Positions 12,272 to 27,817 of a stretch of 64,000 nucleotides of DNA are shown piece after piece. The notes beneath the pieces are model-generated. The model was not told the DNA's origin, made no database searches, and saw nothing but the letters and a program-made list of their open reading frames with translations. Source of the stretch: Candidatus Wolfebacteria bacterium RIFOXYB1_FULL_54_12. Lineage in GTDB: Bacteria > Patescibacteriota > Minisyncoccia > UBA6257 > UBA9933. Every line of letters starts with the position of its first letter. Position 1 is the first letter of the stretch. A program made the translations under genes and the position numbers. Where the stretch lies: the NCBI GenBank assembly GCA_001793895.1, contig MGIT01000001.1:106508-170507 (forward strand), written 5' to 3'.

Positions 12272-12871
12272 ATGCTTCCCAACCAGATCCGCAACTTCAT
12301 CGACGTATTTTCAAAGCTCCCCGGCATCGGCCCGCGCCAAGCGACGCGGCTCGCTTTTTTTATGATTGGCGGAGGCAAAAGCAAAATAAATGAAACCGCG
12401 CGTGCCATCGTCGATCTCGCATCTATCAAGGTCTGCACGAACTGCTTCTTTATCCACTCCAACCAAGAAGCCTTGTGCGACATTTGCCAAAATCCCGACA
12501 GGACCAAAGAAACGATCATGATCGTTGAAAAAGAAACAGACCTTATATCCATCGAACGCACGCGTAAGTTCAAGGGCAGATATCTTATCATCGGTGAGCT
12601 CACCAAAGGCGGCATCCTCGACGCCGTGCAACGATTGCGCCTGAACCACCTAAAAGACGTCATAAAGAACCAGCTCGACGGCCAAGCCGACGAAGTAATC
12701 ATAGCCACCAACCCCACAACCTACGGCGATATGAATGCCATGGTCATCAAAAACGAACTCGAAGGATACGCGAAAAAGTTTACCCGTCTCGGCCGGGGCA
12801 TCCCGACCGGCGGCGAAATAGAATTCGCCGACGAAGATACGCTTGAGCAGGCACTCGAACGACGCATATAA
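12272..12871 (+). CDS. recR: Recombination protein RecR
   Basis: Motifs seen: FSKLPGIGPRQATRLAF, the C4 zinc finger CTNC...CDIC, and a Toprim region. The ATG at 12272 gives 199 aa. Confidence 0.92.
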   Translation: MLPNQIRNFIDVFSKLPGIGPRQATRLAFFMIGGGKSKINETARAIVDLASIKVCTNCFFIHSNQEALCDICQNPDRTKETIMIVEKETDLISIERTRKFKGRYLIIGELTKGGILDAVQRLRLNHLKDVIKNQLDGQADEVIIATNPTTYGDMNAMVIKNELEGYAKKFTRLGRGIPTGGEIEFADEDTLEQALERRI

Positions 12872-12898
12872 TGCACTAATCATATTTGTAACACAAAA

Positions 12899-12924
12899 AA
12901 AGAGGCGGATCGCTCCGCCTCTTC
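12899..12924 (+). terminator. Terminator after recR
   Basis: The structure is agaggcgga-tcgc-tccgcctct. Confidence 0.65.
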
Positions 12925-12949
12925 AACATAGGTAAACATGCTATACCCG

Positions 12950-13291
12950 CTAATGCCGGGCTTTTTCTAGCTCTCGCAGAAAATCTTCGGCCCGCCACTT
13001 GGGAAAATTAGGAATTGCCGAGAATTTATACTTGACCATGCCTTCAATAACAACATTTTTCGGAAGGCCTAACCTCTCGACGGCTTCAGATATTTCCTTG
13101 ATAATCCTTTTCACTAACGCAATAAAGCATATAGTGAACACTATCTCGTACACCGCAAAGATAGACCAAAAGCCTTCTGCAAAAGACACTTTAAAGAAGT
13201 AATGGATGAGCCAACCGAGAATTGTTGAAATGCCGCACGCCTTAATACTATCCGCAAATACCATCATCAAAAGCCGCCAGTACAAAATCAT
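12950..13291 (-). CDS. Hypothetical small membrane protein in an AT-rich patch
   Basis: Three hydrophobic segments are present. No family was recognised. Confidence 0.5.
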   Translation of the reverse strand: MILYWRLLMMVFADSIKACGISTILGWLIHYFFKVSFAEGFWSIFAVYEIVFTICFIALVKRIIKEISEAVERLGLPKNVVIEGMVKYKFSAIPNFPKWRAEDFLRELEKARH

Positions 13292-13471
13292 CGCGCATAC
13301 CTCCGTAAATAAATTAAAGTTGATAAAGTTTCTGAATATAGCATATGTTATATACTATATTTTGTCAATACCTTGTAATGGTTCAATGCCTTTGCAACAC
13401 CCTATAAACATACGAAGCAGCAAATTCGCTTCATCACAGGCTAAGCGTCCGAGGTTCTGCGCGAAAAGAAT

Positions 13472-13503
13472 AAAAAACACGACGCCCGCGCGTCGTGTTT
13501 TTT
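13472..13503 (-). terminator. Rho-independent terminator
   Basis: The structure is acacgacgc-ccgc-gcgtcgtgt with flanking A and T runs. Confidence 0.8.
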
Positions 13504-13515
13504 AAACAACTATTT

Positions 13516-13947
13516 TTATTGGGTAATGGCCGCTTGCGCCTTCATACCCCTGCCCTGTCCGCGTCCATGCATGCCCTGGCCCACGCCTCCCTGCTCGCCC
13601 AAGCCAAGCTCCTGGCGAATGGCATCTGCCTGCCCCATCAGTTTATGCATTTCGACGAATCGCCCGAAGTTGGCCTCGGTAATGCCACTTGTCATGTCGG
13701 CTCCGCGTCCGTTGCCCGGGAGTAAACTCATGGCTTCTTTCCAAGCCGTATAGTCACCAGCCTGAATGGCCGCTTCCACCGCAGTACGATGGGCTTCCAT
13801 AGCCTCACGCTGTGCCGCAACCGCCGCAGTTGGCGCAACATTGCCACCCATCATTCCTCCGCGAGCATAGGTCGTGTTTGCCGCAATCCCTGCGACGCCT
13901 GCGACAATGGCCAACCCGGCTACCCCTACTGCAATTTTTTTGTTCAT
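13516..13947 (-). CDS. Secreted Gly/Met-rich hypothetical protein
   Basis: It has the signal-like N-terminus MNKKIAVGVAGLAIVAGVAGIAA and the low-complexity tail GMHGRGQGRGM. It is the last gene of the ECF sigma cluster. Confidence 0.65.
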   Translation of the reverse strand: MNKKIAVGVAGLAIVAGVAGIAANTTYARGGMMGGNVAPTAAVAAQREAMEAHRTAVEAAIQAGDYTAWKEAMSLLPGNGRGADMTSGITEANFGRFVEMHKLMGQADAIRQELGLGEQGGVGQGMHGRGQGRGMKAQAAITQ

Positions 13948-14037
13948 AATGATATGCGTTAGATTATTTCAGGCAAAGCTACGGAGCAAAACAATGTGCA
14001 CGATCGAAAAGCAATGCAGCAAAGCCTTCATTGATTA

Positions 14038-14811
14038 CTACGAACGCAACGGCATTTTTCTTTCACGCATAAGCATCCCCCTGCCGTCAAATCGTTCGGG
14101 GATCATCATCGCGCCCTGTTTCGTCCAAGGGAACAGCTCGGTCGCGTGGAATACGCCCGGGGCAACCACGGAACCAAAAACTCGGATCCGTTCACCCGGC
14201 ACAGCCTCGATCGTTCCGCGCGAGACAACGGCATCAGTCTCGACGATCCATCTCATTCCCGTAAAATCTTCTATCGTCAGCGTAGTGGTCGCAGAGCCGG
14301 AAACAATCCTGCCGGCAATCACGCCTTCCTGCGGATGCATCCATAAGTGCATCTTGCGTGCATCCAATCCGCGATACTGCGGGACCACTTCGGCAAATCG
14401 TCGATCCACCAGCCGTCCAGCCCCGGCAGCATGCAACAATCCGCCAAGCACAATGCTAGCCAAAAAACTTGCGCCCACAATGGTCGCCATTCGATAGCGA
14501 TACCCGGCTTTGGTATGCCGCGCCTCGACATATGCCAAGGCACCGAACGCGATCATGACCAGCACCCAAACATACGGCAAGTAGGTAAACAGGAACGGGC
14601 CCGGATGCATGCGCATCATGCGCCCCATGCCTGTTTCAACCGCATCGGACAATGAAAACAAAATGACTGAAACGGATATGCCTCCGACAAGTACCGAAAG
14701 CAAAAAGGCACCGATCAGCCCCGCCTGTTGCGCAAAAAATATCCACCGGGGCAAAGGCTGTATGTTTTTCCGTTCTATGGTTTGTAAAATATTTTTGGAA
14801 AAATCTTTCAT
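14038..14811 (-). CDS. Membrane protein, putative anti-sigma factor (by position only)
   Basis: The start MKDFSKNILQ at 14811 lies 4 nt after the sigma gene stop. Several TM helices are present. Confidence 0.55.
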   Translation of the reverse strand: MKDFSKNILQTIERKNIQPLPRWIFFAQQAGLIGAFLLSVLVGGISVSVILFSLSDAVETGMGRMMRMHPGPFLFTYLPYVWVLVMIAFGALAYVEARHTKAGYRYRMATIVGASFLASIVLGGLLHAAGAGRLVDRRFAEVVPQYRGLDARKMHLWMHPQEGVIAGRIVSGSATTTLTIEDFTGMRWIVETDAVVSRGTIEAVPGERIRVFGSVVAPGVFHATELFPWTKQGAMMIPERFDGRGMLMRERKMPLRS

Positions 14812-14815
14812 AGTA

Positions 14816-15406
14816 TTAGCGGATTGTTGATAACGGACCGTCTTCGACCTTGCCCTTGAATTGCTTCTTCGCCCGATTGATAAGCGTGGCAATAGTGCCC
14901 ATCGGTTTCTGCAAAATGTCCGATATTTCGCGATAATCCTTGTCTTCAAGATATTTCAGAACAAGCACTTCACGATATTTCGGATCCATGGCATCAAGCA
15001 CAGCTCGAATGCGCATTGCGGTCATAGCACGATCCGCATCCCGTGCTACATCGACCTCGGACGCAAGCAATTCAAACACATCGTCATTCTCTTCGACCGA
15101 AACGGTCTGCGGTCGGGCGCGCCGCTTGCGGTGCTGGGATATGGTTTCGTTATGCACGATCCGGTATAGCCACGAAGAAAACTTGAGCGATGGATCAAAC
15201 CCATTCAAATTGCGATACGCGCTAATGAACGCATTTTGTAATATATCGGCAATGTCGTCATCCGAATAGCCAGAAATACGCCACACATAGCGGGCAAGTG
15301 GAGCTTCATAGCGACGGATCAAACACGCATATAGTTCACGATCCTTGAGCGTCAATGTGACCAGCTCCTCATCGGTTTTTTCGGCGCACTGCCCGTGGTC
15401 GGTCAT
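14816..15406 (-). CDS. ECF-type RNA polymerase sigma-70 family factor
   Basis: Region 2: LQNAFISAYRNL..SWLYRIVHNETISQHRK. Region 4: YREISDILQKPMGTIATLINRAKKQF. Confidence 0.88.
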   Translation of the reverse strand: MTDHGQCAEKTDEELVTLTLKDRELYACLIRRYEAPLARYVWRISGYSDDDIADILQNAFISAYRNLNGFDPSLKFSSWLYRIVHNETISQHRKRRARPQTVSVEENDDVFELLASEVDVARDADRAMTAMRIRAVLDAMDPKYREVLVLKYLEDKDYREISDILQKPMGTIATLINRAKKQFKGKVEDGPLSTIR

Positions 15407-15470
15407 ATAGTTACAGTATACTACGCTTTTCAGCAACATTTTCTTTCAGAGCTGTGCCATCCCCGCGCTC

Positions 15471-15654
15471 TGTCATTCCCGCGGAGGCGGGAATCTATTT
15501 AATACTGGATTCCCGCCTCCGCAGGGATGATACCGTCTCTAATTAATACATTACTCAGCGCATTGTCATTCCGGCCTAAGCCTGTCCGCCAACTGGAGGA
15601 AGCCGGAATCTTGTTGAAAGAACTCGAGATCCCGTGTCGAGGCACGGGATGACA
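15471..15654. repeat. Cluster of about four GTCAT-hairpin units
   Basis: The units are tgtcattcccgcggaggcgggaatc, ggattcccgcctccgcagggatga, tgtcattccggcctaagcc...ggaagccggaatc and gagatcccgtgtcgaggcacgggatgaca. Confidence 0.9.
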
Positions 15655-15749
15655 TCGGAGAGCGACACAGGAAGCAATCGGAATGAATTTATTAGGGATG
15701 GCATGGCAGCTACAAAAAATCGCCGAATATCATTCGACGATTTTTATCG

Positions 15750-16073
15750 TTAGGAAATTTTACCAATTTCTACTTCGGTATAATCCTGCCTATGCGTCTT
15801 GAACTTTCGATAGCGGTTCTTGTTGTGGTAGCGGAAGACGATCTTTTTGTCGTCCCGATCCTTGCTCAACACGGTCGCTTCGACTTTCGCATTGGCCACA
15901 TACGGAGCTCCGATGGTCGCATCGGCGCCATCTTTCTGCTCGTCGGCGACAAGCAAAACCTTATCAAAAACGAACTGCTCGCCAATGGCGGCCTCCAGTT
16001 TTTCTACTCTTAGCTTTTGTCCGGCGGAAACCTTGTACTGCTTTCCACCCGTTTCGATGACTGCAAATTTCAT
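15750..16073 (-). CDS. rplU: 50S ribosomal protein L21
   Basis: The N-terminus is MKFAVIETGGKQYKVSAGQKLRVEKL. Confidence 0.93.
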   Translation of the reverse strand: MKFAVIETGGKQYKVSAGQKLRVEKLEAAIGEQFVFDKVLLVADEQKDGADATIGAPYVANAKVEATVLSKDRDDKKIVFRYHNKNRYRKFKTHRQDYTEVEIGKIS

Positions 16074-16116
16074 ATCACTTAAAGATACCTGAAGACCCTT
16101 AAAATGTCAACAGAAT

Positions 16117-16189
16117 TGTCATTCCCGCGAAGGCGGGAATCCACTACGTTCATATAGATCCCTCCGCCAGTCGGCGGACGGGAATGACA
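16117..16189. repeat. Composite GTCAT-hairpin repeat
   Basis: tgtcattcccgcgaaggcgggaatccac...gatccctccgccagtcggcggacgggaatgaca. Confidence 0.9.
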
Positions 16190-16321
16190 GAAATAACCTG
16201 CACCCTATCCGAAAAATTGGAAAAATGCCGTCCACGCCAAGTACTTCCGCAAGCTTCGGGACACCCTCCGTTGATGTTCAATGATTTTATTTCTACCAAG
16301 GTCAAATCGGAAACAGCCTAT

Positions 16322-16897
16322 TCATAAGATGAATTTTAAGATGCTGTCACGCACGATCGGAAGTTCATAAATGCCGGCAGCTTCGCTAAAATGCCCCATG
16401 TCATGCATAACCGTAACGAAACCGCCCAAACGATCCTCAAATAACCGCTTGTTTTCATCAAGTGCAACATATGGGTCATTGTCGGAAAGGATAACGCACA
16501 ACGGACGGCATCGCTCACGCACAAAGGCAAGATTAATCGCGGTATCCAACCACGGCCTTGCGATATCCTCCTCTTCGGCGTTTTCCAGACCTTGCAACGA
16601 AAACCAGCCGGCAACAAAAATGACCGGCACAGATACGCCGTCCCCGTACAATTCCAAATAGCGCAAAATAGTCTGACACCCGATACTATGGCCAACTAAA
16701 ATATCCGTAGACCGTAACTCACCGATCTCCGTATGGAGCGCGCCGACCCACTCATCGATTGTTGGACGCATCGTATCGGGCATCGCAGGAATATGCACCG
16801 CAAGGCCATACGGCTCAAGCTGGTCCGCGAGCCATGGAAACCATTCTCGATCCGGAGCTGCGCTCCACCCATGTACGATAAATATGCGCTGTTTCAT
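16322..16897 (-). CDS. Alpha/beta serine hydrolase (YdeN/RBBP9-like)
   Basis: It contains IFIVHGW and the nucleophile elbow VGHSIGC. The ATG at 16897 gives 191 aa. Confidence 0.75.
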   Translation of the reverse strand: MKQRIFIVHGWSAAPDREWFPWLADQLEPYGLAVHIPAMPDTMRPTIDEWVGALHTEIGELRSTDILVGHSIGCQTILRYLELYGDGVSVPVIFVAGWFSLQGLENAEEEDIARPWLDTAINLAFVRERCRPLCVILSDNDPYVALDENKRLFEDRLGGFVTVMHDMGHFSEAAGIYELPIVRDSILKFIL

Positions 16898-16899
16898 GA

Positions 16900-17235
16900 T
16901 TAGAAATATAAATAATACACCACCGATCCGATGGCCAATAATGCAATGCATACCAAAACAGATAGGGCAATGATCACGCGTTCCTTTTTTGCATCTTCAG
17001 GCTTCAATTGCGCCTCTTGGGCAATGTCATTGAACACCTCATCGGCCTTTTTAAGAACATCCTCGCCGGAAACCTGGGCAGGTTTCGCATCGCCCGTCGC
17101 AAGCACCGCCTGCATGATAGCATCCACATCGGCCGGCTCGACGCCCCGATACACGAGCAGTTCACGAACCTGGTCCTGTCCGATGCCCCCCTTCAGCTGG
17201 TCTTTTGCGATTGTGATGAGTTTTTGTTTATCCAT
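16900..17235 (-). CDS. Hypothetical protein with a C-terminal TM anchor
   Basis: Its N-terminal about 45 aa (K.QL.GG...VRE.L..RG) are paralogous to the start of the next gene. Confidence 0.6.
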   Translation of the reverse strand: MDKQKLITIAKDQLKGGIGQDQVRELLVYRGVEPADVDAIMQAVLATGDAKPAQVSGEDVLKKADEVFNDIAQEAQLKPEDAKKERVIIALSVLVCIALLAIGSVVYYLYF

Positions 17236-17286
17236 GGCTAAAATCTATTTTTCTATCGTTTTATTATTATGCAAACTTCGCTTATT

Positions 17287-17356
17287 TGTCATTCCGGCCT
17301 CCGAGCCGGAATCTTACCGTTTAACCGCGAGATCCTGAATCAAGTTCAGGATGACA
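17287..17356. repeat. Composite GTCAT-hairpin repeat
   Basis: tgtcattccggcctccgagccggaatc...gagatcctgaatcaagttcaggatgaca. Confidence 0.9.
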
Positions 17357-17373
17357 GTCGTAGACGCATCATC

Positions 17374-19170
17374 CTATTTAGTTGCACTGATTTTAACCCC
17401 TAATTCCGCATACGGCGCCCGCACGGTTATCTTTCCAGTCTTTGGGTCGCGAAGCACGGAATAGCCACTCATTGTTGCCGTTCCCCTGCTCGGGTCCCGC
17501 GGCAATGCGCGCAGATACCACGGCGCAAGGCAAGACTCGATGGCATATCCGCTCGTACCCAGAACCTTTGCAGTCGTCGGCAACGGTCCGGCAGAACAAG
17601 TAAATGCGCCGTCGTTATCGGCTTCGTTTTTCTTGATGGCGTTGGTGATCGCTTCGACATCAAAACTCCTGCGGGCGTTGCGCTCCAGCGCGGTCTTCGG
17701 CGCGGGGATGCGCGCATCGCCGCCAAGCATCTGCGTGAACAACGATTGCAAAGCGCTATCGATCGATCGCGCATCTTCCGGAGGGAAAATGTCCACAGGC
17801 TTATCGAAGCTGTTACCGGTAAGCGTTACCAGAACGCTCGCACTGCGCGCGCTGTCTTGCGGATCAATCGCAATGTGCATCTGCACTTTGCGTGGCGCCC
17901 CGCCAAGTTTCCCGATCCACACGTGCAAATCATCAATGGCGACGTTGGATAGCATGTCTCGCGCTTCCGGTGAACCATTTTTTTCAAGCCAACGAATAAA
18001 AGCTTCCTTATCGAACGCAAGCACATAGTGCCGCGATGAAACACCGTCAATGACCTCGTCTGCCAATGTACTTTGCACGGTCAAAAATCGATGTTCTTTC
18101 CATGCGGCAATACTCGTACTGCGCTCCTGCTTTGAAAGCCACGGCACAAGCCCACTCGCAGGATCCGTAGGTGATCCAAACTGTTCATGCGCATCTTTGT
18201 CCGACACCATGAACCACTGTTGCTGCAATGCGCTCAAGTTGAGAAACCCAAGGCTGGGCATGGCCGTTATATTTACATAACTGACCCGGTCGATATTGTT
18301 ATAAATAAATCCAAGCGTCGCTTCGCCCACGGCCCACTTGTCCATGGTCGATACGGCGGTAAAGGCCAACCGAGGATCGCCTTCTTGCGTTCCGTCAAAA
18401 GAACCGACGATATTTGATGTAAGCGTCGCCGGCCCATCAGCGGCAAACATGCTCACGAACGGCCCTGCGGCTCCCGTCGTTGCGACCAAGCCGGTCTTTG
18501 CATTTGCCATTTCCACCACGATCTCGCTCGCGAACGTAAACGATTCCACGCTATGCAATCGCGACATAGCCCGATCGATATCCCGCTCGGGCGATATGAA
18601 ATAGGCGGCATAAGCAAACCAAATACCCAGCGCCAATACCGCAATGCCAACGATCGCAATGGCGGTAAATGTAATGATTTTTTTCTTGTTGCGAATTTCG
18701 GAAACAGGTTTTTCTGCAACAGCGGAAGCGGTTGCTTTAAAAACAGAGGCTAACGGAGGTTGCTGTATTCCATTGGCAACGGCAAACGGAACGGTAGGCT
18801 GCAAAGGTGGCACAGGGCGGACCACGCCATGCGCTTCCGTGCGTGCAGGCGCAGGCTCAGGCGACGGCACCGTCGGCTTTGTAATAGGAGCAACCGGGAC
18901 TGCTTCTTGTACCACAGGAACAATCGGTCCGGGAGCTGGCGCTGGTTTAGGTGCCGGAGTCGGCTCGGCAACGATCTCAGGGGTTGGGATGGGATCAGCA
19001 ACCACTTCCTTACGCGCCATGCCCGTAACTCCGGGCGATACCAGTTCAAATATCTCGCGTATTTCTGCTTCATCGGTTCCCCTCCTACGCAAAAACTCGC
19101 GGACTTCCGCTTCACTCACCCCTCCACCCAATTGGTTTTTCACCACTTCAATAAGCGCCTGTTGTATCAT
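17374..19170 (-). CDS. Large membrane-anchored hypothetical protein with a Pro-rich linker and a pilin-like C-terminal module
   Basis: It has the shared N-terminal module, a PTPEIVAEPTPAPKPAPAPGP linker and one TM helix. The C-terminus NARRSFDVEAITNAIKK..DNDGAF..LPRDPS resembles the globular head of type IV (pseudo)pilins. Confidence 0.65.
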   Translation of the reverse strand: MIQQALIEVVKNQLGGGVSEAEVREFLRRRGTDEAEIREIFELVSPGVTGMARKEVVADPIPTPEIVAEPTPAPKPAPAPGPIVPVVQEAVPVAPITKPTVPSPEPAPARTEAHGVVRPVPPLQPTVPFAVANGIQQPPLASVFKATASAVAEKPVSEIRNKKKIITFTAIAIVGIAVLALGIWFAYAAYFISPERDIDRAMSRLHSVESFTFASEIVVEMANAKTGLVATTGAAGPFVSMFAADGPATLTSNIVGSFDGTQEGDPRLAFTAVSTMDKWAVGEATLGFIYNNIDRVSYVNITAMPSLGFLNLSALQQQWFMVSDKDAHEQFGSPTDPASGLVPWLSKQERSTSIAAWKEHRFLTVQSTLADEVIDGVSSRHYVLAFDKEAFIRWLEKNGSPEARDMLSNVAIDDLHVWIGKLGGAPRKVQMHIAIDPQDSARSASVLVTLTGNSFDKPVDIFPPEDARSIDSALQSLFTQMLGGDARIPAPKTALERNARRSFDVEAITNAIKKNEADNDGAFTCSAGPLPTTAKVLGTSGYAIESCLAPWYLRALPRDPSRGTATMSGYSVLRDPKTGKITVRAPYAELGVKISATK

Positions 19171-19219
19171 GCCTGCTCAAAAAATAACTATACACTAAGT
19201 ATATCCGACAACGCCCAAC

Positions 19220-19264
19220 AAAACAAAAACCATGCATTAAAATGCATGGTTTTTGTTTTTGTGG
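19220..19264. repeat. 45-bp direct repeat, left copy (hairpin plus cca-proximal flank)
   Basis: The sequence aaaacaaaaaccatgcattaaaatgcatggtttttgtttttgtgg matches 21890-21934 at 41/45 positions, and the last 24 are identical. Confidence 0.85.
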
Positions 19265-19408
19265 TGTTTGTTTGAAAAAGTCAGAACCCATTTTGAGAAA
19301 GATCCCTAACCGCTCCGCTCGGGGTGCGGCGGAAAAAGAAAAAAAAAATTAGGGAGGCGGGAAGAATCCCGCGCCGTCCGAGTTAAAAAATTGGCACTGG
19401 GCGAATTT

Positions 19409-21829
19409 CTAATAAGTCGAATAGGCGTAGTCAAACACGGCATGAGCTACTGTCTCTAAACTTTTAGCACTACATTTATCGAGCGTATCGCCAGTCGTAT
19501 GATATGGCGGGTATTCAAAATCAATCAACAGGAAACTCGGAATTCCAGCTCGATTGAGCGGGGTGTGATCATCTTGGACACTTTGCCCAACCTTATCTTG
19601 AAAAACGTGGCTGTCCACTTTTTGCGCAATACTCCAAAATGCGTCCGCTTGAGACTGGGCATTTTGCACGGATGATTGCTCCTTGTAAATTCTCAAGTCT
19701 TTATCGCACACCATATCAAGAACAAGTGCGGATACCGGTATATTATTCCCATAAAGTTCGCTCAAATGTTCGGAAAAATAAGTAGAACCGAGAGGTCTCC
19801 AATTGCTATAATCACTGCCTTGATTTATATCTCCCTCTTCTCCATCAAAGAAAACGATGTCCACGCCAACACTCGGTATCACATGAGAATTGCCGAGTAT
19901 CCGCGCTAATTCCACAAGGACGGCAACACCCGAAGCAGAGTCGTTGCCCCCTGGCACTGGTTGATCTTTGTATACGTGATCCTTATCCGCAAGTTTTTTA
20001 CTGTCATAATGTGTCGCTAAAATAATGCGCCGTTCTTGGGTTGGGTATAGACGGCCTATGATATTCGATAATTTATGGATTTTACCGTCTGTCCCTTTGT
20101 AATCCCACGATTGTGTAATTACTTCGTTGGTTTGTTCTTTCATCTCCGCAATTAGAAATTTCTGCACGTTTTCATGCCCGGGTGCGCTCATGTGGCGCGG
20201 CCCATACCTTAGTTGTTGGTTTATCACGGCAAGCATTTCGTTGCCATCAATAAACGGTTTTTCCTTAAAAGTACGCCGGAGAACTTCGGACGTTAAGTAC
20301 TCAACCGGAGAAAAATTGTCGGTGAGAATTGGGTATGGAGACAAATTAAATCTGTCCAAGTTGATAACTTTATTTCGAAGCGAGCTAATGATTGAGTTCT
20401 CATTTTGCAGAATTGAAGCCGCGCTCAAATCAATTTTTTTATTACCATTCCATCCAACCAAAATAATATTTTGGGAATCTGTTTTTCCGGGAGTTTCAAC
20501 CGCAAAAAAATAACTATTTGGAAAAACACTTTGAAAAGTTTTTATCTCCGCAAAAATAAGAGATGGCTCTTGTCTTGATAAATCTCCGATTAAATTAGCG
20601 ATAAACAATCCATCGTCAGATAATTTCTCTTTTGCGATGGTAAAAAATTCCTGCGTTGTAAAGTGAGCAGGAATGGAAAAAAGAGAATGGTACGCATCGC
20701 TAAATATAAAATCATATTTTTTATTCGAATCCCAAAGCAGGCGACGACCATCTTCAGTATAATTGTATAGATTTGAATTGTCTTCTACGGCAAAATATTC
20801 TTTTGCTAATGCCAATAACGATGGTTCAATTTCTGAAACATCGAGTGTCGCGTTTGGCAACTCCGCTAAAAGGGCCTTCGGTATAGAATATGCGCCACCG
20901 CCTATAACTAAAGCATTTCGTACGTCCGGCTTGAAAACTTTGTAGAGAGAATAGTATTTCGTGTATTCATAAACGAGATCGGCCGGGTTATCCGAATCGA
21001 GAAACATCGCACCGGAACCACTCCGATCCTGTTGAAAAAATCTTGTCGGCCTGCTTTCAAACATACCATCGTAGATGGTGATTTTTTCGTAAATACCATC
21101 TTTGCTGTACAATACATCGCCTTTTGTTTGCTGAACCGCAACAATGGTAATAAGGGCTAAAGTGACAACGGCAACCAAAGACTGGGTTAGGCGTTTTTTG
21201 TCAAAACCAAATACCGTAAGTGGGATAAATCCGAGAAGGAAGAGAACAACTCCTGTGGCAATAAAAATATGGTCTATGCCAAAATTAGGTATAAGCACAA
21301 AACCCGCAAGTAGACTGCCAATGATACTCCCCAGAGTAGACCAAAAAAATATTTTACCCGAAACACTTCCCACTCCCTGCTCTGGTGCTTGAAGACTCTG
21401 TAATTTTATAGCATAGGGCGACAAAGTGCCGAGCAATAACGCAGGAACAAGGAACAGCAGCAAAGAAGAGATCAGTGGTCCGCTTGTAAGTGAAAGATTT
21501 TTGCTTAAAATTGGAAGAATTATCAAACCAAAAAAATGAAATACAAGGACAAGAAGACCGCTTACGAGAATTATCCCGAAGAACCACCGTAACGATGGGT
21601 GACGATCTGCAAATTTTCCGCCCACATAATATCCTATGCTAAGAGCTGCGAGTATAACACTTATTATACTTGATACAGTAAAAATTGTGTTTCCATAGTG
21701 AGGCGAAAGGACACGGACGGCAACGACTTCAATAATCAAAACACACGCCCCAGTGATAAATACTGAGATTGGCAGCAAATTTTGCTTTAAAAATTTGTTC
21801 ATGTATTTAATCATGGTAGCAGTTTGCAT
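19409..21829 (-). CDS. Fusion protein: polytopic membrane spermidine-synthase-like domain plus M28 peptidase/glutaminyl-cyclase-like domain
   Basis: The N-terminus has about 7 TM helices. The SAM-fold motif is ALVIGGGAYSIP. The C-terminal M28 motifs are ATHYDS, GGNDSASGVAVLVELARIL, FFDGEEG and DDHTPL. Confidence 0.8.
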   Translation of the reverse strand: MQTATMIKYMNKFLKQNLLPISVFITGACVLIIEVVAVRVLSPHYGNTIFTVSSIISVILAALSIGYYVGGKFADRHPSLRWFFGIILVSGLLVLVFHFFGLIILPILSKNLSLTSGPLISSLLLFLVPALLLGTLSPYAIKLQSLQAPEQGVGSVSGKIFFWSTLGSIIGSLLAGFVLIPNFGIDHIFIATGVVLFLLGFIPLTVFGFDKKRLTQSLVAVVTLALITIVAVQQTKGDVLYSKDGIYEKITIYDGMFESRPTRFFQQDRSGSGAMFLDSDNPADLVYEYTKYYSLYKVFKPDVRNALVIGGGAYSIPKALLAELPNATLDVSEIEPSLLALAKEYFAVEDNSNLYNYTEDGRRLLWDSNKKYDFIFSDAYHSLFSIPAHFTTQEFFTIAKEKLSDDGLFIANLIGDLSRQEPSLIFAEIKTFQSVFPNSYFFAVETPGKTDSQNIILVGWNGNKKIDLSAASILQNENSIISSLRNKVINLDRFNLSPYPILTDNFSPVEYLTSEVLRRTFKEKPFIDGNEMLAVINQQLRYGPRHMSAPGHENVQKFLIAEMKEQTNEVITQSWDYKGTDGKIHKLSNIIGRLYPTQERRIILATHYDSKKLADKDHVYKDQPVPGGNDSASGVAVLVELARILGNSHVIPSVGVDIVFFDGEEGDINQGSDYSNWRPLGSTYFSEHLSELYGNNIPVSALVLDMVCDKDLRIYKEQSSVQNAQSQADAFWSIAQKVDSHVFQDKVGQSVQDDHTPLNRAGIPSFLLIDFEYPPYHTTGDTLDKCSAKSLETVAHAVFDYAYSTY

Positions 21830-21889
21830 ATGATTAGTCTATCCGCCATTGTATTTTTTAAGCGAGGACTATTTTCAAAATATTTCACA

Positions 21890-21934
21890 AAAACAAAGAC
21901 CACGCATTTTAATGCATGGTTTTTGTTTTTGTGG
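21890..21934. repeat. 45-bp direct repeat, right copy; also the terminator hairpin after tRNA-Ala
   Basis: The sequence aaaacaaagaccacgcattttaatgcatggtttttgtttttgtgg overlaps the last 3 nt of tRNA-Ala. Confidence 0.85.
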
Positions 21935-22002
21935 ACCTAGGCGGAATCGGACCGCCGTCTCAGCAATGCGAATGCCGTGTTCTACCACTAGACTATAGGC
22001 CC
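21932..22002 (-). tRNA. tRNA-Ala (CGC)
   Basis: Reverse complement: GGGCCTATAGTCTAGTGGTAGAACACGGCATTCGCATTGCTGAGACGGCGGTCCGATTCCGCCTAGGTCCA. The G3:U70 identity pair is present, and the anticodon loop is TTCGCAT. Confidence 0.88.
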
Positions 22003-22052
22003 TTTTATTAGCCTTTTTATTATAGGGATATTGGGGTAAAAATCAACCGGAT

Positions 22053-22173
22053 TGTCATATACCGGCGTCCGCCCGCAACGATGTAGCAACTTCTGGCGGG
22101 GAGGCCGGAATCCGGTAGTATATTTCCACAAAGACACTTAGTACTCTGGATCCCGATTTTCATCGGGATGACA
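22053..22173. repeat. Degenerate GTCAT-hairpin cluster
   Basis: tgtcataccggcgtccgcccgc...ggcggggaggccggaatcc...ctggatcccgattttcatcgggatgaca. Confidence 0.8.
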
Positions 22174-22188
22174 ATACAAAAACTTGGT

Positions 22189-23457
22189 TTATTCGGGAAT
22201 TTCAACAAAATGGTAATTCTTCTTACCGCGCTTCACGATGATATATGTATTAAACAGGATATCGTCGTTACTCAATAGGGCGTCAACATCGGATATTTTC
22301 TTTCCGCTTATTTCAATCGCTCCGGATTCGATATCTTCCCGTGCCTGTCGCTTCGACAGCGGCGTCTTCCATGCAAGCGACGCGAGAAAATCGACGACGG
22401 TCATATCTTTGATGCTTGCGGCATCAATCTTTTGTACGGCAACATTCCCGACGAACAATGCTTCGCATTTCTTTTTGTCCGTCACAATCTCCGAAATATC
22501 TCCGCCAAACAGCGCCTCGGAAATATTCTGTGCCTGCTTCAGCGCTTCTTTCCCATGCACGAATTCCGTCACCGCTTCCGCAAGCGCCTTGTGTGCTTCG
22601 CGCTTCTCGGGTGCGGCCTGCAACGATCGTTCCAGTTCTGCAATTTCTTCAAGCGTCAAAAATGTATAGTATTTCAAAAATTTCACCACATCGGCGTCGT
22701 CAACATTCAACCAAAATTGGTAAAAATGATAGGGCGAGGTCAATGTCGCGTCGAGCCAAACAGCTCCCCCTTCGCTCTTGCCCATCTTCTTTCCGTCTGC
22801 CTTTGTGACGAGCGGCATGGTCAAGCCATACACTTCTTTGTGCAACGCCTTGCGAACCAACTCGATGCCCGCGGTAATATTTCCCCACTGGTCGGAACCG
22901 CCGATCTGCAATGCCACTTCGCGCGATTCATGCAGTTTCAAAAAATCATACGCCTGCAACAACATGTAGCTGAACTCGGTGAACGAGATGCCCGTTTCCA
23001 ATCGGCTCTTTACCGATTCCTTGGCAAGCATTTCATTGACGGTAAAATATTTTCCCGCATCGCGCAAAAAATCAACAAGCGGCATTTGCCCGAGCCAATC
23101 GTAATTGTTCACATATTGCGCATGTTTGAAATTAAATTGTCCGATTTGCTTTTCCAACCCGGCAGTCATCGATTCCACAACATCGCTTGTGTTAAGCGTA
23201 CGCTCCTGTGCCTTTCCGCTCGGGTCGCCGATCAGGCCCGTGGCCCCGCCCACCAGCATCACCGGCACCATGCCGGCATCCTCAAGCCGCTTGGCAAATA
23301 CGATACCCAAAAGACTGCCCACATGCAGGCTCGCCGCCGTCGGGTCGAAACCCATGTAAAACAGCCCGCCTTTGCGGTCTACGAGCGCCCGGAGCGCTTC
23401 TTCGTTGGATACCTGATAGATCAGTCCTCGTTCCTTTAATTCATCCAAAATATGCAT
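22189..23457 (-). CDS. tyrS: Tyrosine--tRNA ligase
   Basis: Motifs seen: GFDPTAASLHVGSL (HIGH-type), KMGKSEG (KMSKS-type) and a C-terminal S4-like domain. Confidence 0.93.
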   Translation of the reverse strand: MHILDELKERGLIYQVSNEEALRALVDRKGGLFYMGFDPTAASLHVGSLLGIVFAKRLEDAGMVPVMLVGGATGLIGDPSGKAQERTLNTSDVVESMTAGLEKQIGQFNFKHAQYVNNYDWLGQMPLVDFLRDAGKYFTVNEMLAKESVKSRLETGISFTEFSYMLLQAYDFLKLHESREVALQIGGSDQWGNITAGIELVRKALHKEVYGLTMPLVTKADGKKMGKSEGGAVWLDATLTSPYHFYQFWLNVDDADVVKFLKYYTFLTLEEIAELERSLQAAPEKREAHKALAEAVTEFVHGKEALKQAQNISEALFGGDISEIVTDKKKCEALFVGNVAVQKIDAASIKDMTVVDFLASLAWKTPLSKRQAREDIESGAIEISGKKISDVDALLSNDDILFNTYIIVKRGKKNYHFVEIPE

Positions 23458-23498
23458 ATGTGTGTATTGTATCGCAAAAGGCCGGCCTTATGAAAGGG

Positions 23499-24440
23499 TT
23501 ACGGCACGATGCGGATTTCCTCCTCCAAAACGATCCCATACCGCCCAAGAGCCTTCTTTTTGGCGAGCTTGATCAAGCCGATAACATCGGCAAAGGTGGC
23601 CCGGTTTCGGTTGATGAAAAAATTGGGATGCTTTTCCGATATTTCGGCGCCGCCAATGCGCGACCCCTTCAGATCAAGCCGGTCAAGCACCGCGGCAACG
23701 GGAATCACAGGAAACGGATCCACCTTGACCACGCTGGCGAATTCTTTTCGCACCTGCGGGGTGACGGATGCGACGGGAATATTTTTGAATGTGCTTCCTG
23801 CGCTCGGATATTCGAGGGGCTGAAACCGTTCACGGTATGCGATGCATCGTTCCACTTCCGCACAAACCGCTTGCTTGTCTCCCGGCGTGGCACGCACCAC
23901 GACGCTCGCAATGATCTCGTTGCCGTTGCGCTTGAATACGCTATCGCGGTAACCAAACGCACATTCTGCGGCACTGCGAACACGGCGCTCTACCATTCCC
24001 GCTGCGCGATCATAAAAAATACTTTCCACCGAAACAACGCAGTCTTTCATTTCCCCGCCAAAGCACCCCGCATTCCCAAACACCGCACCGCCGACCGTAC
24101 CGGGCAACCCGCCTGCCCATGCAAGATCGTCGAGCCCCTGCGCCAAATGATAACGGACCGCATCCTGCATGGATGTCCCGGCGGAAATGCGCACGCCTCC
24201 CGCCTCTTTACGAATGTGCTTGTTTACATATTGCATGATCAATCCATCGTAACCCCGTTCGGAAAAAAGCATGTTCGTACCGGCTCCCAAAAAAAGAAAC
24301 GGGATACGACGCGCAAACGCCCATCGCACGGCACCGACGATATCGTGCGCGTTCTGCGGCTCGCAAAAATACCGGGCCTTTCCGCCGATCCGGTAATGCA
24401 TGCGCCGTGCAAGTGAAATGTTTCTTCGAATGGCTATCAT
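23499..24440 (-). CDS. murB: UDP-N-acetylenolpyruvoylglucosamine reductase MurB
   Basis: The FAD-binding motif is FLGAGTNMLF. The C-terminus has GGAEISEKHPNFFIN. Confidence 0.9.
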   Translation of the reverse strand: MIAIRRNISLARRMHYRIGGKARYFCEPQNAHDIVGAVRWAFARRIPFLFLGAGTNMLFSERGYDGLIMQYVNKHIRKEAGGVRISAGTSMQDAVRYHLAQGLDDLAWAGGLPGTVGGAVFGNAGCFGGEMKDCVVSVESIFYDRAAGMVERRVRSAAECAFGYRDSVFKRNGNEIIASVVVRATPGDKQAVCAEVERCIAYRERFQPLEYPSAGSTFKNIPVASVTPQVRKEFASVVKVDPFPVIPVAAVLDRLDLKGSRIGGAEISEKHPNFFINRNRATFADVIGLIKLAKKKALGRYGIVLEEEIRIVP

Positions 24441-26632
24441 GAGAGTTTCTTTCCGCTCCAGCGCAACAACAGCGCGTTAGCCGCAACGACCACCGTACTC
24501 AACGACATGAGCGCCGCAGAAAGGGCAGGCGAAAGCACGATCCCCTGCGAATGCAGTACGCCCGCGGCAAGTGGAATGGCAATCACATTATATCCGGTCG
24601 CCCAAAACAGGTTCTGCAACATCTTGCGATAGGTCAATCGGGACAGTTCAAATATCTTTGCCACATCGCGCGGATCGCTCTTGGCCAAAATGATCCCCGC
24701 GGATTCGATGGCCACGTTCGTACCGGCACCGATGGCGACCCCGACGTTCGCCTGCATCAATGCAGGCGCATCGTTGATGCCGTCACCGACCATGGCAACG
24801 CGATAGCCCTGTTCCTGATACTTTTTAACCTTCTCGACTTTTTCATGTGGCGATATGCGGAAAAAATATTCCTCAATGCCGAGATCTTGCGCGACCCACT
24901 CGGCAACCTCCTCGGAGTCACCCGTCATCATGATCGGCTTGATGCCGAGGCGCTTTAATGTTTCGATCGCTTCTTTTGATTCCGGGCGGATGACATCGGC
25001 AAGCGCAATGACACCGATCGGCGCGTCATCCACTACGACGTACACGATGGTCTGCCCTTTGCCCGCGAGCAATGCAACTTCTTGGCGCACTTCTTGTGGC
25101 ATTTGGTCGACGATCTTTGCCCCTACAAGCGCTTCTCCGCCCACTTCCACACGAAGCCCGCGCAATGTACCCCGCACACCCTTGCCGGGCAATCGCTCGA
25201 AGCCGGTCACCAGAAACAGTTCAATCTCGCGTTGCCGCGCTTCCGCCACGATCGCGCGGGAAACGGGATGTTCCGAAGCGGTATCAACCGAAGCGGCAAG
25301 CCGCAATATGTTTTCTTCGACACGAGATTCCACTACACCCTGCGCATCACCCTCAACAGTTTCTTTTTCAAACGGAATGATCTTGTGGACTCCATATGCA
25401 CCGGCGGTCAATGTGCCGGTCTTATCAAACAGCACCATGTCGATGGTTCGCGCGGCCTCAAGTGCAAGCCGATCTTTGACAAACAACCCGTTGCGCGAAG
25501 CAAGTGAAGTCGATATGGCGACCACCAACGGCACGGCAAGCCCAAGTGCGTGCGGACACGCCACCACCAACACTGCGACGACCCGACCCAATACGAACGA
25601 AGGGTCGGCGCCCAATGTACTCCAAACAATCGCAGTGGCCAACGCGGCAGTAATGGCGATTCCGGTCAAATAAGAAGCGGCCCTGTCGGCGAGAATCTGC
25701 ATATGCGATTTTGACATCTGCGCCTTGACGACCAAACGCATGACACCCGCCAAAAAAGTATTCCCTCCGATTTGGGTAATGCGTATGACCAACCGGCCAT
25801 CTGCATTGATGGTGCCTGCAACGACCCCGCCGTCTATCCGCTTCGCAATAGGAGCCGACTCGCCCGTGATCATGGCCTCGTTGACCTGCGATTCCCCTTC
25901 GACGACAATTCCATCTGCCGGTATTTTCCCGCCCGGCTTCACCACGACCATGTCGCCTAAGTTCAGTTCATCCAACGTCACGGTCTTGGTCTCTTTTCCT
26001 GCGACGACCTCGGCGGTATCGGGCAGCAGCGCGGCAAGCGTCTGCAACGCACGTTGCGCGGTATCGATGGAACGCATTTCTATATAATGTCCAAGCAACA
26101 TGATGGTGATCAATGTTGCAAGCTCCCAAAACAAACCATGCGGATCGCCGGTGGCAAACACATACACGCTATAGGCATACGCATTAATGATCGCAAGTGA
26201 AATGAGCGTCATCATTCCCGGAACCTTTGCGCGCAATTCACGCACGGCGCCGACAAGAAAGATCCACCCGGCATAAACAAACACAATGGACCCAAGCGCG
26301 GGCGCAAGATAACGCACGCCACGAAACACAGGCACAGAAAACCCAAATAACGTCTCAGGGAGTTCGGAATACAATACGATCGGAATGGTCAATGCAAGCG
26401 AAATCCAGAATTTTTTCAAAAATGAACCGGCGGTATGGCCGGCATGTGCATCATGCACCGGAGCCTGTTCGCCCGGCAGCGCGTGGTCAACAAACCCGCG
26501 AACGGTCAATACCATGCCGCACTTCGGACAATTGCCCGCGCGCTCGGAAGAAACATCGGGATGCATGGGGCAAGTATATTCGACTACCGGATCATTCAGG
26601 AGATCGTGGACCATATTACAGCAGTATACCAT
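24437..26632 (-). CDS. Heavy-metal (Cu-type) P1B ATPase with a CPH motif
   Basis: Motifs seen: the N-terminal CPMHPDV..CPKCGM metal-binding ribbon, TGES, the transmembrane CPH motif in VVACPHALGLA, DKTGTLT and GDGINDAPAL. Confidence 0.9.
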   Translation of the reverse strand: MVYCCNMVHDLLNDPVVEYTCPMHPDVSSERAGNCPKCGMVLTVRGFVDHALPGEQAPVHDAHAGHTAGSFLKKFWISLALTIPIVLYSELPETLFGFSVPVFRGVRYLAPALGSIVFVYAGWIFLVGAVRELRAKVPGMMTLISLAIINAYAYSVYVFATGDPHGLFWELATLITIMLLGHYIEMRSIDTAQRALQTLAALLPDTAEVVAGKETKTVTLDELNLGDMVVVKPGGKIPADGIVVEGESQVNEAMITGESAPIAKRIDGGVVAGTINADGRLVIRITQIGGNTFLAGVMRLVVKAQMSKSHMQILADRAASYLTGIAITAALATAIVWSTLGADPSFVLGRVVAVLVVACPHALGLAVPLVVAISTSLASRNGLFVKDRLALEAARTIDMVLFDKTGTLTAGAYGVHKIIPFEKETVEGDAQGVVESRVEENILRLAASVDTASEHPVSRAIVAEARQREIELFLVTGFERLPGKGVRGTLRGLRVEVGGEALVGAKIVDQMPQEVRQEVALLAGKGQTIVYVVVDDAPIGVIALADVIRPESKEAIETLKRLGIKPIMMTGDSEEVAEWVAQDLGIEEYFFRISPHEKVEKVKKYQEQGYRVAMVGDGINDAPALMQANVGVAIGAGTNVAIESAGIILAKSDPRDVAKIFELSRLTYRKMLQNLFWATGYNVIAIPLAAGVLHSQGIVLSPALSAALMSLSTVVVAANALLLRWSGKKLS

Positions 26633-26665
26633 ACCGAATAAGCCCTTAAAACCGTCCCTTGTGGC

Positions 26666-27760
26666 TCAACGCATAACCCCACCTCCGATGACAACTCCAT
26701 CGGCATCGTAAAATACGGCAGATTGTCCCACGGCAACAAACCGTTGCGGTTCATCGAATTGCAACCGATAGGCCTCACCATCGGCGACCAATGTCGCCGC
26801 AAACAACGGCTGGCGATAGCGGATGCGCACCATGACCGGAATGGACTTCGGGGGGGCTATGGCGCACATGCCCATGAAATTAAGTTCAACAAGGCCAATA
26901 TCCGCACATGCCTGCTCAAGCAAATGATCATCATGCGAAACCGTGATGACATTGCTTGCGACATCTTTTTTGACCACAAAATACGCCGGTCCGCCCCCGA
27001 CATGCAATCCGTGCCGTTGCCCGATGGTATAAAACCACACACCCTCGTGCTCGCCCACCTTCACTCCGTCGACGGTAACAATGTCGCCCTTCCGTTTCGG
27101 CAGATACTGTTCCAAAAATTCACGCAACGATATCTTCCCCAAAAAACAAATACCTTGGGAATCTTTTTTCTGCGCCGTCGGAAGTCCCGCGGCCGCCGCA
27201 ATCTCCCTGATCTTCGGCTTTTCATAGGCACCGATCGGAAACAAACAATGCCGCAGTTGCTCCTGCGTAAGCGTCCACAAAAAATAACTCTGATCTTTAT
27301 TCCCATCAATCCCTTTCTGTAATGAGTAAGTAGTTTCCTGTTTTTTGTTATCGGTTATAGGTTGTAGGTTATAGGTTGCGCTTCGCGCATAATGCCCCGT
27401 CGCCACATAATCAGCCCCCAACGCAAGCGCCTTTTGCAAAAACACGCCAAACTTGATTTCCTTGTTGCACATCACATCCGGGTTCGGGGTAATGCCGTTG
27501 CGATACCCGTTGACCAAATATTCCACCACGAATTGTTTGTATTCTTCTTCAAGATCGATGACATAAAACGGGATGCCCAAATGTTCGGCAACGCGCCGCG
27601 CATCTTCCGCTTCGCGGTCTTGGCATCCGTCCATGTTATATCCTTTAATGAACGCGCCGATCACATCATAAGTCCCCTGCTCGCGCAACAAAAAAGCGGC
27701 GACACTCGAATCGACGCCGCCCGACATCATGACAAATACTTTTGGCTTTAAACCATTCAT
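26666..27760 (-). CDS. mnmA: tRNA 2-thiouridine(34) synthase MnmA with a repeat-derived in-frame insertion
   Basis: Motifs seen: the PP-loop MMSGGVDSSVAA, ATGHYAR and NKDQSYFLW. The segment ATYNLQPITDNKKQETTY is encoded by the GGTTAT repeat. Confidence 0.92.
   Translation of the reverse strand: MNGLKPKVFVMMSGGVDSSVAAFLLREQGTYDVIGAFIKGYNMDGCQDREAEDARRVAEHLGIPFYVIDLEEEYKQFVVEYLVNGYRNGITPNPDVMCNKEIKFGVFLQKALALGADYVATGHYARSATYNLQPITDNKKQETTYSLQKGIDGNKDQSYFLWTLTQEQLRHCLFPIGAYEKPKIREIAAAAGLPTAQKKDSQGICFLGKISLREFLEQYLPKRKGDIVTVDGVKVGEHEGVWFYTIGQRHGLHVGGGPAYFVVKKDVASNVITVSHDDHLLEQACADIGLVELNFMGMCAIAPPKSIPVMVRIRYRQPLFAATLVADGEAYRLQFDEPQRFVAVGQSAVFYDADGVVIGGGVMR
27347..27378. repeat. GGTTAT-type repeat inside the mnmA CDS
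   Basis: gttatcggttataggttgtaggttataggttg. Confidence 0.8.
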
Positions 27761-27817
27761 ACTATCGGAAGCCTACCAAAAAAGACATAAAAGTAAACCC
27801 CCGCCGGTAAGGTGGGT

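Follow-up and report, generated by a model that had tools for sequence, protein, structure and literature searches.

Cis-mobilisable elements (CIMEs) are att-flanked, integrase-less units, known from Streptococcus in the company of ICESt-type integrative and conjugative elements (ICEs), that carry the att sites of a cognate ICE of the same species. Integron cassettes and pdif/Xer modules (integrative mobile elements exploiting Xer, IMEX) are single-gene units with imperfect palindromes at their bounds and a recombinase that is external to the module. Integration by Cas1-family enzymes proceeds through widely staggered strand transfers that duplicate a whole target of tens of bp, often a palindromic one such as the CRISPR repeat, and casposons, which prefer tRNA 3' ends, produce 14-15-bp duplications. 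The tycheposons, the tRNA-associated islands of Prochlorococcus, encode a tyrosine or large serine recombinase and are bounded by repeats that are partial copies of the tRNA (bioRxiv 10.1101/2020.12.28.424599), and the insertion sequences IS1549 and IS1634 generate long target duplications of variable length (8-514 bp) by a mechanism that is unexplained (PMC2266710). We describe here a locus in a 64,000-nucleotide stretch, hereafter the window, of the genome of Candidatus Wolfebacteria bacterium RIFOXYB1_FULL_54_12 (contig MGIT01000001.1, positions 106,508 to 170,507), a member of the Candidate Phyla Radiation (CPR; Patescibacteria). Positions 19265-21889 of the window are a horizontally acquired single-gene cassette beside tRNA-Ala(cgc), and the 45-nt direct repeat around them is the duplicated landing site, made of the last 3 nt of the tRNA and its terminator hairpin. 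In function the locus is a tRNA-flank genomic islet. Because it has no recombinase or transposase, partial-tRNA att, attC or clear terminal repeats, it falls outside the definitions of the nearest described systems and we do not file it in any one family. The features on which the argument rests are the following.

17374-19170, minus strand: lineage-specific 598-aa gene, found directly after tRNA-Ala and the hairpin in relatives
19220-19264, minus strand: distal copy of the 45-nt target duplication, beyond which the native sequence resumes (promoter of the 598-aa gene and the beginning of that gene)
19265-21889, minus strand: inserted DNA, 2,625 nt, GC 0.409, delimited by alignment and blastn of the sister contig L094 against the window
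19409-21829, minus strand: sole islet gene, 806 aa, the only open reading frame (ORF) between the repeat copies
21890-21934, minus strand: tRNA-proximal copy of the 45-nt duplicated target, comprising the last 3 nt of the tRNA and the terminator hairpin
21931-22002, minus strand: tRNA-Ala (anticodon CGC) according to ARAGORN; the Rfam tRNA model (57 bits) gives 21932-22002
22189-23457, minus strand: tyrosyl-tRNA synthetase (TyrRS), the conserved upstream anchor and the query for finding relatives

The two copies of the repeat (19220-19264 and 21890-21934) match in direct orientation at 41/45 positions, their final 24 nt being identical, and two matches to the 38-nt repeat core were seen in none of the window's dinucleotide shuffles. 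The right-hand copy overlaps the 3' end of tRNA-Ala by 3-4 nt, the other 41-42 nt being the downstream terminator hairpin. Both the repeat pair and the participation of its right-hand copy in the end of the tRNA and in its terminator had been put forward in an earlier reading of the DNA letters (the original prediction), and both hold up under alignment, ARAGORN/Rfam annotation and folding. Each copy is a near-perfect palindrome with a stem of 20 bp and a loop of 2-4 nt, is terminator-like by site scan, and folds at -27.3 kcal/mol (z -7.7) in the tRNA-proximal and -27.7 kcal/mol (z -5.0) in the distal position. The tRNA-proximal copy differs from the distal one by two stem substitutions and one loop change, and the distal copy has practically the same sequence as the single copy of the sister lineage. 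The pair aligns in inverted orientation (43/45, manual alignment) as well as it does directly, and it is the empty-site comparison presented below that identifies it as a direct duplication of the target. An invertible segment with lox- or hix-like inverted sites (loops AA and TT) was considered and rejected, a single orientation being present in 7/7 independent contigs; a single mutation would give either loop a symmetric TTTAAA centre, and loop variation is also found among relatives. CPR terminators share A-tract and T-tract arms such as AAAACAAAAAC...GTTTTTGTTTT, which might allow two unrelated look-alike terminators to pass for such a pair. The chance that this, or an assembly chimera, explains the locus is negligible in our view, given that the GC-containing stem is identical in the two copies and private to the locus, that the empty site holds a single copy, and that both junctions are base-for-base the same in seven contigs of independent origin (ENA, NCBI and JGI assemblies), which excludes an assembly artefact. 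The contigs spanning the locus are of Rifle groundwater origin.

Four relatives reveal the state of the site before the islet arrived. One, from a sister lineage (L094), was found by scanning metagenomes with TyrRS, and three more syntenic ones (L174, L176 and L177) were found through the 598-aa protein, whose NCBI name is hypothetical protein of Candidatus Wolfebacteria bacterium RIFOXYB2_FULL_49_7. The TyrRS of L094 is 93% identical to that of the window, its core proteins are 85-99% identical, and the contig is collinear with window positions 12326-27780 (15 kb) at 85-97% nucleotide identity. After tRNA-Ala, L094 carries the hairpin once (CCACAAAAACAAAAACCATGCATTTAAAATGCATGGTTTTTGTTTT), and the homologue of the 598-aa gene lies 91 nt beyond the tRNA. 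The tRNA side of the window tracks L094 through the end of the hairpin and then diverges, the 598-aa side rejoins L094 exactly at the start of the hairpin, and blastn homology between the two stops exactly at the inner ends of both repeat copies. Because the alignment breaks at both copies, 19265-21889 is an insertion accompanied by a 45-nt target duplication, which has left the tRNA with its terminator and the 598-aa gene with its promoter. The TyrRS proteins of the other three relatives are 84-88% identical to that of the window. In the outgroup lineage L174 (TyrRS 84%) the site is likewise empty, with a single hairpin that has undergone compensatory stem changes; L176 carries a 222-aa SEC-C-motif gene directly after tRNA-Ala (GC 0.37 versus 0.51-0.54), and L177 a 108-aa gene between two different hairpins. 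All four relatives keep tRNA-Ala and its promoter, the insertion in the window lying directly 3' of the tRNA. The gene of the islet is thus missing from the site in 4/4 relatives (TyrRS 84-93% identical), two of them empty and two with other genes; since outgroups are among them, its absence is ancestral, which places the gain later than the divergence from the L094 lineage. The different single genes carried there by L176 and L177 identify the 3' flank of this tRNA-Ala as an insertion hotspot, hit at least three times in the genus-level clade.

The composition of the islet gene is clearly foreign: its GC is 0.408 versus 0.50 for the window, and its GC content at third codon positions (GC3) is 0.374 versus a window mean of 0.572 +/- 0.068 (50 ORFs), that is, 2.9 standard deviations below the mean and the second lowest of all. 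The original prediction, which saw in the locus a tRNA-adjacent insertion of a gene AT-richer than its neighbours, is therefore borne out both by the GC profile and by the sites of L094 and L174, where tRNA-Ala is followed by one hairpin copy; it had named as contrary evidence the presence of the gene in all relatives together with a host-average composition, and what we find is its absence from every relative compared and a strongly deviating GC3. A history in which an ancestral gene was lost from the relatives by recombination between the 45-nt direct repeats would yield just the single-copy site of L094. We consider it very improbable, as the outgroups are also devoid of the gene, two relatives hold other genes at the site, the GC3 is far below the window mean, and the origin of the repeats would still require an insertion event. 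As a separate observation on the tRNA-Ala of L174, the first 20-21 nt of this gene and its promoter are duplicated ~112 nt upstream of the intact tRNA (positions 6726-6858 of the contig); the duplicate brackets a hairpin-containing insert of ~91 nt, which has the appearance of an insertion within the tRNA gene healed by duplication.

A scan of the whole window for repeats identified a second islet with flanks that could be compared to empty sites in the same manner.

46394-47038: second single-gene AT-rich insert, 645 nt, with one 208-aa ORF; GC 0.34, GC3 0.30
46340-46393 and 47039-47092: 54-nt direct repeat, 94% identical, from the whole-window repeat scan
47039-47800, minus strand: SDR gene, source of the 54-nt repeat

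The 208-aa ORF, the lowest-GC ORF of the window and one with no match in Pfam or PADLOC, occupies the whole insert except for 1 and 17 nt. The 54-nt repeat consists of the last 17 codons of the SDR gene and its stop codon, and is non-palindromic. In a sister (L184, SDR 95% identical) and an outgroup (L185, SDR 80% identical) the SDR gene adjoins ScpA and the 54-nt sequence is single-copy, and both copies in the window carry a derived base that L184 and L185 lack. The coding, non-palindromic nature of the repeat, the single-copy state of the relatives and the derived base common to both copies together argue that the local target was copied at insertion and not imported as an att mimic. Since this second insertion duplicated 54 nt of ordinary coding sequence, the palindromic character of the tRNA-Ala repeat is probably incidental. 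Only repeats with an empty site are counted here as target duplications, the further candidates mentioned below coming from other loci without empty-site controls. We note in passing that the GyrB of the sister contig L184 (positions 1-2170; 1,099 aa) contains an intein with an Intein_splicing domain that is missing from the GyrB of the window (49491-51494; 667 aa).

Compared with integrase-type tRNA islands, the islet at tRNA-Ala displays occupied and empty alleles and a foreign composition, and shows neither an internal integrase nor repeats made of the 3' part of a tRNA. Like the tycheposon islands, it is foreign cargo placed 3' of a tRNA in a streamlined genome between flanking direct repeats, at a site hit repeatedly in relatives, and in both cases cargo can persist without an integration module; unlike them, it has no recombinase, holds a single gene, and is flanked by a repeat that represents the downstream terminator with only 3 nt of tRNA. 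It shares with CIMEs the flanking direct repeats, the absence of recombination genes and a presumed trans-acting enzyme, and differs from them in having no known cognate ICE and in that its repeat is a copy of the local target instead of a conserved att sequence. At 45 nt its target-site duplication is far over the usual 2-14 bp and within the range of IS1634/IS1549, whose target duplications similarly vary over tens of bp; these, however, are autonomous elements that encode a DDE transposase and end in terminal inverted repeats, whereas the islet has no transposase and no convincing terminal repeats. Integron and pdif modules are, like the islet, single genes bounded by imperfect palindromes, but the islet has no R''/R' core pair, extrahelical bases, integron integrase or array and does not lie at dif, and the repeat of the second islet is not a palindrome at all. 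The possibility that the hairpin is an integron attC was rejected, as it is near-perfect and has GCCCAAC on one side without a GTTRRRY partner opposite, and neither an integrase nor an array accompanies it. Finally, duplication of a whole target of tens of bp is common to the islet and to Cas1-family integration, and placement at a tRNA 3' end is common to the islet and to casposons; no cas1 or casposon gene was seen in the islet or among the window ORFs screened, the cargo is a 2.6-kb ordinary gene, and the 45-nt duplication is longer than that of casposons.

The only gene of the islet encodes, in agreement with the original prediction, an 806-aa protein in which a polytopic N-terminus and a spermidine-synthase-like domain are fused to an M28/glutaminyl-cyclase-like domain (residues 521-804). 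The model for fused MFS/spermidine synthases, NF037959, matches residues 28-512 (E 6e-73, 246 bits versus a cut-off of 40) and is spanned from position 2 to position 480 of 480; PF04389 (Peptidase_M28) matches residues 589-801 with 99 bits versus a cut-off of 21. Among solved structures, the C-terminal 285 residues are nearest to bacterial glutaminyl cyclases and M28 exopeptidases (PDB 3gux and 6qro, the best hits, and 4fuu), and the M28 metal ligands and catalytic EE pair (H607, D630, E664/E665, D705, H755) show no or almost no variation across 22 homologues. The product is predicted to be a membrane-anchored spermidine-synthase-like/glutaminyl-cyclase-like enzyme, with a C-terminal domain for which cyclase and peptidase activity are not separable from sequence. 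Our literature searches returned no paper dedicated to this three-part fusion, and PADLOC, run on the inserted proteins, returned no defence match for either insert gene of the window. The insert further contains the following elements.

21848-21878, minus strand: promoter-like signal TTGAAA, 19 nt, TACAAT, ending 18 nt before the ATG
19335-19376, minus strand: terminator-like element found by reading, a GC-rich hairpin (GGCGCGGGA..TCCCGCC) with a run of 10 T
19372-19405, minus strand: degenerate downstream arm of an inverted repeat that brackets the ORF, partner of 21840-21868
21840-21868, minus strand: upstream arm of this inverted repeat (agTCCTCGCTtAAAAAAtacaATGGCGGATAg), from alignments of the upstream and downstream blocks

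The promoter-like signal may have been carried in by the insert, its 19-nt spacer exceeding the limit of the consensus scan, and the terminator-like element is tentative, its fold being no better than that of shuffles (z -1.0). Nucleotide homology among copies of the gene covers the ORF, ~8 nt downstream of it and a block just upstream of the ATG, where it begins 20-40 nt from the start codon. In the contig of the closest homologue (L178, positions 1-71 and 2466-2497), which ends exactly at this element, the inverted repeat around the ORF has no mismatch over 30 nt or more; degenerate but still recognisable forms of it exist in L013, L014, L015, L182 and the window, and their differences include at least one that is compensatory (TCCTC/GAGGA to TCATC/GATGA). 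The window arms lie 21 and 107 nt inside the ends of the insert. The ends themselves show, by reading, a weak and gapped inverted match of ~15/20 (TGT..TTTGAAAA.AGTC), and the non-coding head and tail of the insert had no match in any fetched locus.

More than 120 full-length homologues of the fusion protein, at 57-87% identity, were found in many CPR groups; the genome scan added unfused forms of ~510 aa and copies labelled as Acidobacteriota or as further phyla. The nearest copies (75-87% amino-acid identity) lie in unrelated, non-syntenic neighbourhoods and hold a GC of 0.40-0.44 across hosts of GC 0.335-0.52, the difference between copy and host flank being +0.07 in L014 (flank 0.335) and -0.10 to -0.12 in the window and L013 (flank 0.52). 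Protein identity alone was rejected as proof of transfer, since the core proteins of genus-level relatives are 76-93% identical, a range that takes in the 85-87% reached by the best fusion homologues; the case for transfer is built on the composition, the absence from four relatives and the lack of synteny. In two related genomes that have in common the block TPR-MurJ-LepA-DivIC-Grx-small ORF-tRNA-Phe-HSP20 (L011 and L182), the fusion gene occupies different places; in L182 it follows tRNA-Phe, and the same position is empty in L011. Across 74 non-Acidobacteriota loci, 46 tRNA genes lie within 350 nt of the gene ends where 3.6 are expected, corresponding to a density of 0.94/kb versus ~0.07/kb at 1-6 kb (Poisson P 1e-34) and versus 0.056 tRNA/kb in a control set of 80 TyrRS loci. 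Forty of these 46 tRNAs turn their 3' end to the gene (P 3e-7), being encoded on its strand if they precede it and on the other strand if they follow it, and the gene adjoins a tRNA 3' end in 33/73 non-Acidobacteriota loci, ~13-fold over background, counts that include related, non-independent loci and overstate the number of events. The identities of the tRNAs are diverse, which calls for many separate landings. CPR bacteria have exchanged the fusion gene widely, and its usual landing place is a tRNA 3' flank.

A position at the 3' end of a tRNA is also what would be produced by Campbell-type site-specific integration, in which a circular element with an attP mimicking the tRNA-Ala 3' flank is inserted by a tyrosine or serine recombinase encoded elsewhere or since lost; the islet would then be a cis-mobilisable remnant, like a CIME or the leftover cargo of a tycheposon-type element. 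Such a history would fit with the divergence of the tRNA-proximal copy and the ancestral state of the distal one, as expected of attL/attR, and with the tRNA 3' fragments found near other copies of the gene (a 21-nt fragment upstream in L013, where the full tRNA-Leu lies downstream; a 16-nt tRNA-Phe fragment in L182; L017). In L179/L180 the fusion gene is part of a low-GC block after tRNA-Ser that includes a serine recombinase and a GIY-YIG gene, and a 44-nt repeat elsewhere in the window is composed of 20 nt of tRNA-Phe and its trailer. The block of identity at tRNA-Ala, however, is a lineage-specific terminator with 3 nt of tRNA, and a foreign element would have needed 45 nt of clade-private sequence to match it. 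The second islet would have required an attP of its own that included 54 nt from the SDR gene of this lineage, its 1 and 17 spare nt leave no room for decayed element genes, and both of its repeat copies bear a lineage-specific derived base. Moreover, no integrase is found in the window ORFs screened, no IMG/VR viral contig carries the fusion gene or the hairpin as a possible phage attP, and site-specific recombination only propagates a cassette that has already been joined to a copy of the target. On balance, we regard this origin as possible but unlikely.

A duplication made de novo needs either strand transfers staggered by 45-54 bp and followed by gap filling, or replicative template switching. 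The former is practised on a smaller scale by transposases and Cas1-type integrases, and IS1549 and IS1634 achieve it with duplications of 8-514 bp (PMC2266710). In the reading that we favour, to which the absence of a recombinase from the islet and the window ORFs screened lends support, the cassette would not be self-mobile and would be joined to its target by a trans-acting enzyme; strand transfers staggered by ~45 bp on the two target strands would, upon gap filling, give rise to the long target-site duplication, and the 54-nt duplication at the second islet may have been made by the same process. Taken as one package, the proven insertion and its trans-acting, widely staggered integration have in our judgement an even chance of being correct. 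Several observations weigh against it. No integrating enzyme was found in the 64 kb of genome inspected: the islet has no recombinase, transposase or Cas gene, as the original prediction had stated for recombinases, and none is present among the ~45 ORFs screened (Pfam or tblastn) across the window. The inverted repeats at the termini of the insert are weak and gapped, no end motif recurs between the two verified inserts, and the differing lengths of the duplications (45 and 54 nt, and 21-76 nt for candidates elsewhere) are a poor fit to a fixed molecular ruler. All substitutions between the copies at tRNA-Ala fall in the insert-proximal arm of the tRNA-side copy, the distal copy being ancestral, a pattern also expected of classical attP x attB integration. 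Derivation of this arm from fold-back copying or from a donor allele was considered and set aside, the signal of 2-5 bases not being decisive. Lastly, a scan for flanking direct repeats showed no comparable duplication at ~80 other loci of the gene family, the window locus alone being significant, so that the long duplication is not a constant companion of the gene.

The variable lengths of the duplications and the lack of convincing terminal inverted repeats or common end motifs would also suit an enzyme-free capture, in which transformed DNA is copied in by template switching at a stalled replication fork, in a manner resembling microhomology-mediated break-induced replication or fork stalling and template switching (MMBIR/FoSTeS). 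A fork halted by a hairpin or by the end of a highly transcribed gene and re-entering upstream of its point of exit would duplicate 45-54 nt. Patescibacteria are naturally transformable according to published work on Saccharibacteria, which counts in favour of this scenario, as do the location of the sites at gene 3' ends, terminators and tRNA genes, all plausible obstacles to forks or transcription, and the A/T-tract low-complexity similarity at the junctions (CAAACAAACA / CCACAAAAACAAAAAC). It nonetheless appears improbable to us, for the junctions of the second islet have no clear microhomology, the inserts are neat single transcription units and not random fragments, and template switching alone gives no account of the 13-fold, orientation-specific clustering at tRNA 3' ends across many CPR lineages. 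Returning to enzymatic integration in trans, a more general proposal is that CPR genomes may gain single genes by an undescribed process that inserts cassettes devoid of a recombinase and copies ~45-55 bp of the target where a tRNA gene or a protein gene ends. This would leave both neighbours undamaged and would account for the clustering of one widely exchanged surface-enzyme gene at tRNA 3' flanks; by analogy with Cas1 or IS1634-type transposases, an integrase not yet recognised as such, and equipped with a long molecular ruler, could be responsible. We think this proposal rather unlikely.

Gene exchange in the ultra-small, mobile-element-poor bacteria of the CPR is largely unexplained. Against this background, the window offers two gains resolved to the base, each with matching empty sites, a neat single gene, an unusually long duplication and no recombinase in the insert, together with one conserved membrane-enzyme gene that is scattered over many CPR lineages, often by tRNA 3' flanks. 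Should all of these share one mechanism, gene flux in the CPR would follow a path overlooked by present tools for finding islands and transposons; if they do not, the locus is still a clean textbook case of a hotspot at the flank of a tRNA, from a lineage without cultivated members.

Other copies of the gene family are accompanied by repeats of several kinds. In two distant loci, L024 (6828-7489) and L074 (7596-8410), a single ORF of 190 and 219 aa, respectively (30% mutual identity), with a PaaX_M/Cas2-like domain lies directly downstream of the MFS/spermidine-synthase gene, each between two identical perfect palindromes of 36-37 nt with the common core ACGATCGT; the unit of L074 adjoins the 3' end of a tRNA-Leu. 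L024 also has a 32-nt palindrome (ACCCTTCACCTTTAGTTAAAGGTGAAGGGTTT) twice inside its intact fusion ORF (5033-5064 and 5864-5895), and the length of this ORF, 819 aa versus the usual ~797, makes the palindromes look like in-frame insertions. Just upstream of the fusion gene copy of L180, a 76-nt direct repeat (47-122 and 1749-1824; 91%, hairpin GAAACGCCGCAGGCGTTTC) surrounds a PF00239 serine-recombinase gene and a 99-aa ORF, the recombinase looking degraded in L179. The unfused copy of L051 is located between two converging tRNA-Leu genes (tag, taa) and inside a 78-nt inverted repeat (5842-5919 and 7582-7659; 88%). L013, which is NCBI contig JBCLGP010000002.1, forms a near-perfect self-palindrome in which the fusion gene and the type IV secretion system (T4SS)-pilin genes each occur twice, in opposite orientations, probably an assembly artefact.

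The 44-nt direct repeat at tRNA-Phe in the window (7608-7868; 95%) comprises ~20 nt of the tRNA 3' end and a 24-nt trailer and surrounds a GC-rich non-coding insert of 173 nt. L032 is organised in a similar way, with a 44-nt repeat at tRNA-Gly and an insert of 151 nt, and so is L182, where the 16-nt tRNA-Phe fragment lies 160 nt downstream; the inserts at these three places have no detectable mutual sequence similarity. The wider repeat scan also produced a false lead at L163 (5468-7513), a TyrRS locus that is probably from Neisseriaceae and not CPR, in which two pilin genes lie between 47-nt repeats with a hairpin resembling a DNA-uptake sequence (AGGTCGTCTGAA); it was rejected as a target duplication, the locus being a pilin locus with repeated terminators, and repeated terminators can mimic target duplications.

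The intergenic spacers of the window contain a dispersed family of short palindromic units (TGTCATTCCCGCGGAGGCGGGAATC..., with variants ending in GGAATGACA), found at the following positions.

557-628, 1444-1713, 2381-2456, 15464-15654, 16110-16145 and 29020-29110: palindromic units in window spacers
37742-37805, 45342-45500, 47790-47905, 51532-51567, 52881-52988 and 53134-53161: palindromic units in window spacers

A 28-nt direct repeat (52744-53057; 96%), ~250 nt from tRNA-Gly(ccc), encloses 258 nt of short palindromic units, and the spacer between TyrRS and tRNA-Ala (22050-22162), which is non-homologous to that of L094, holds units of the dispersed family.

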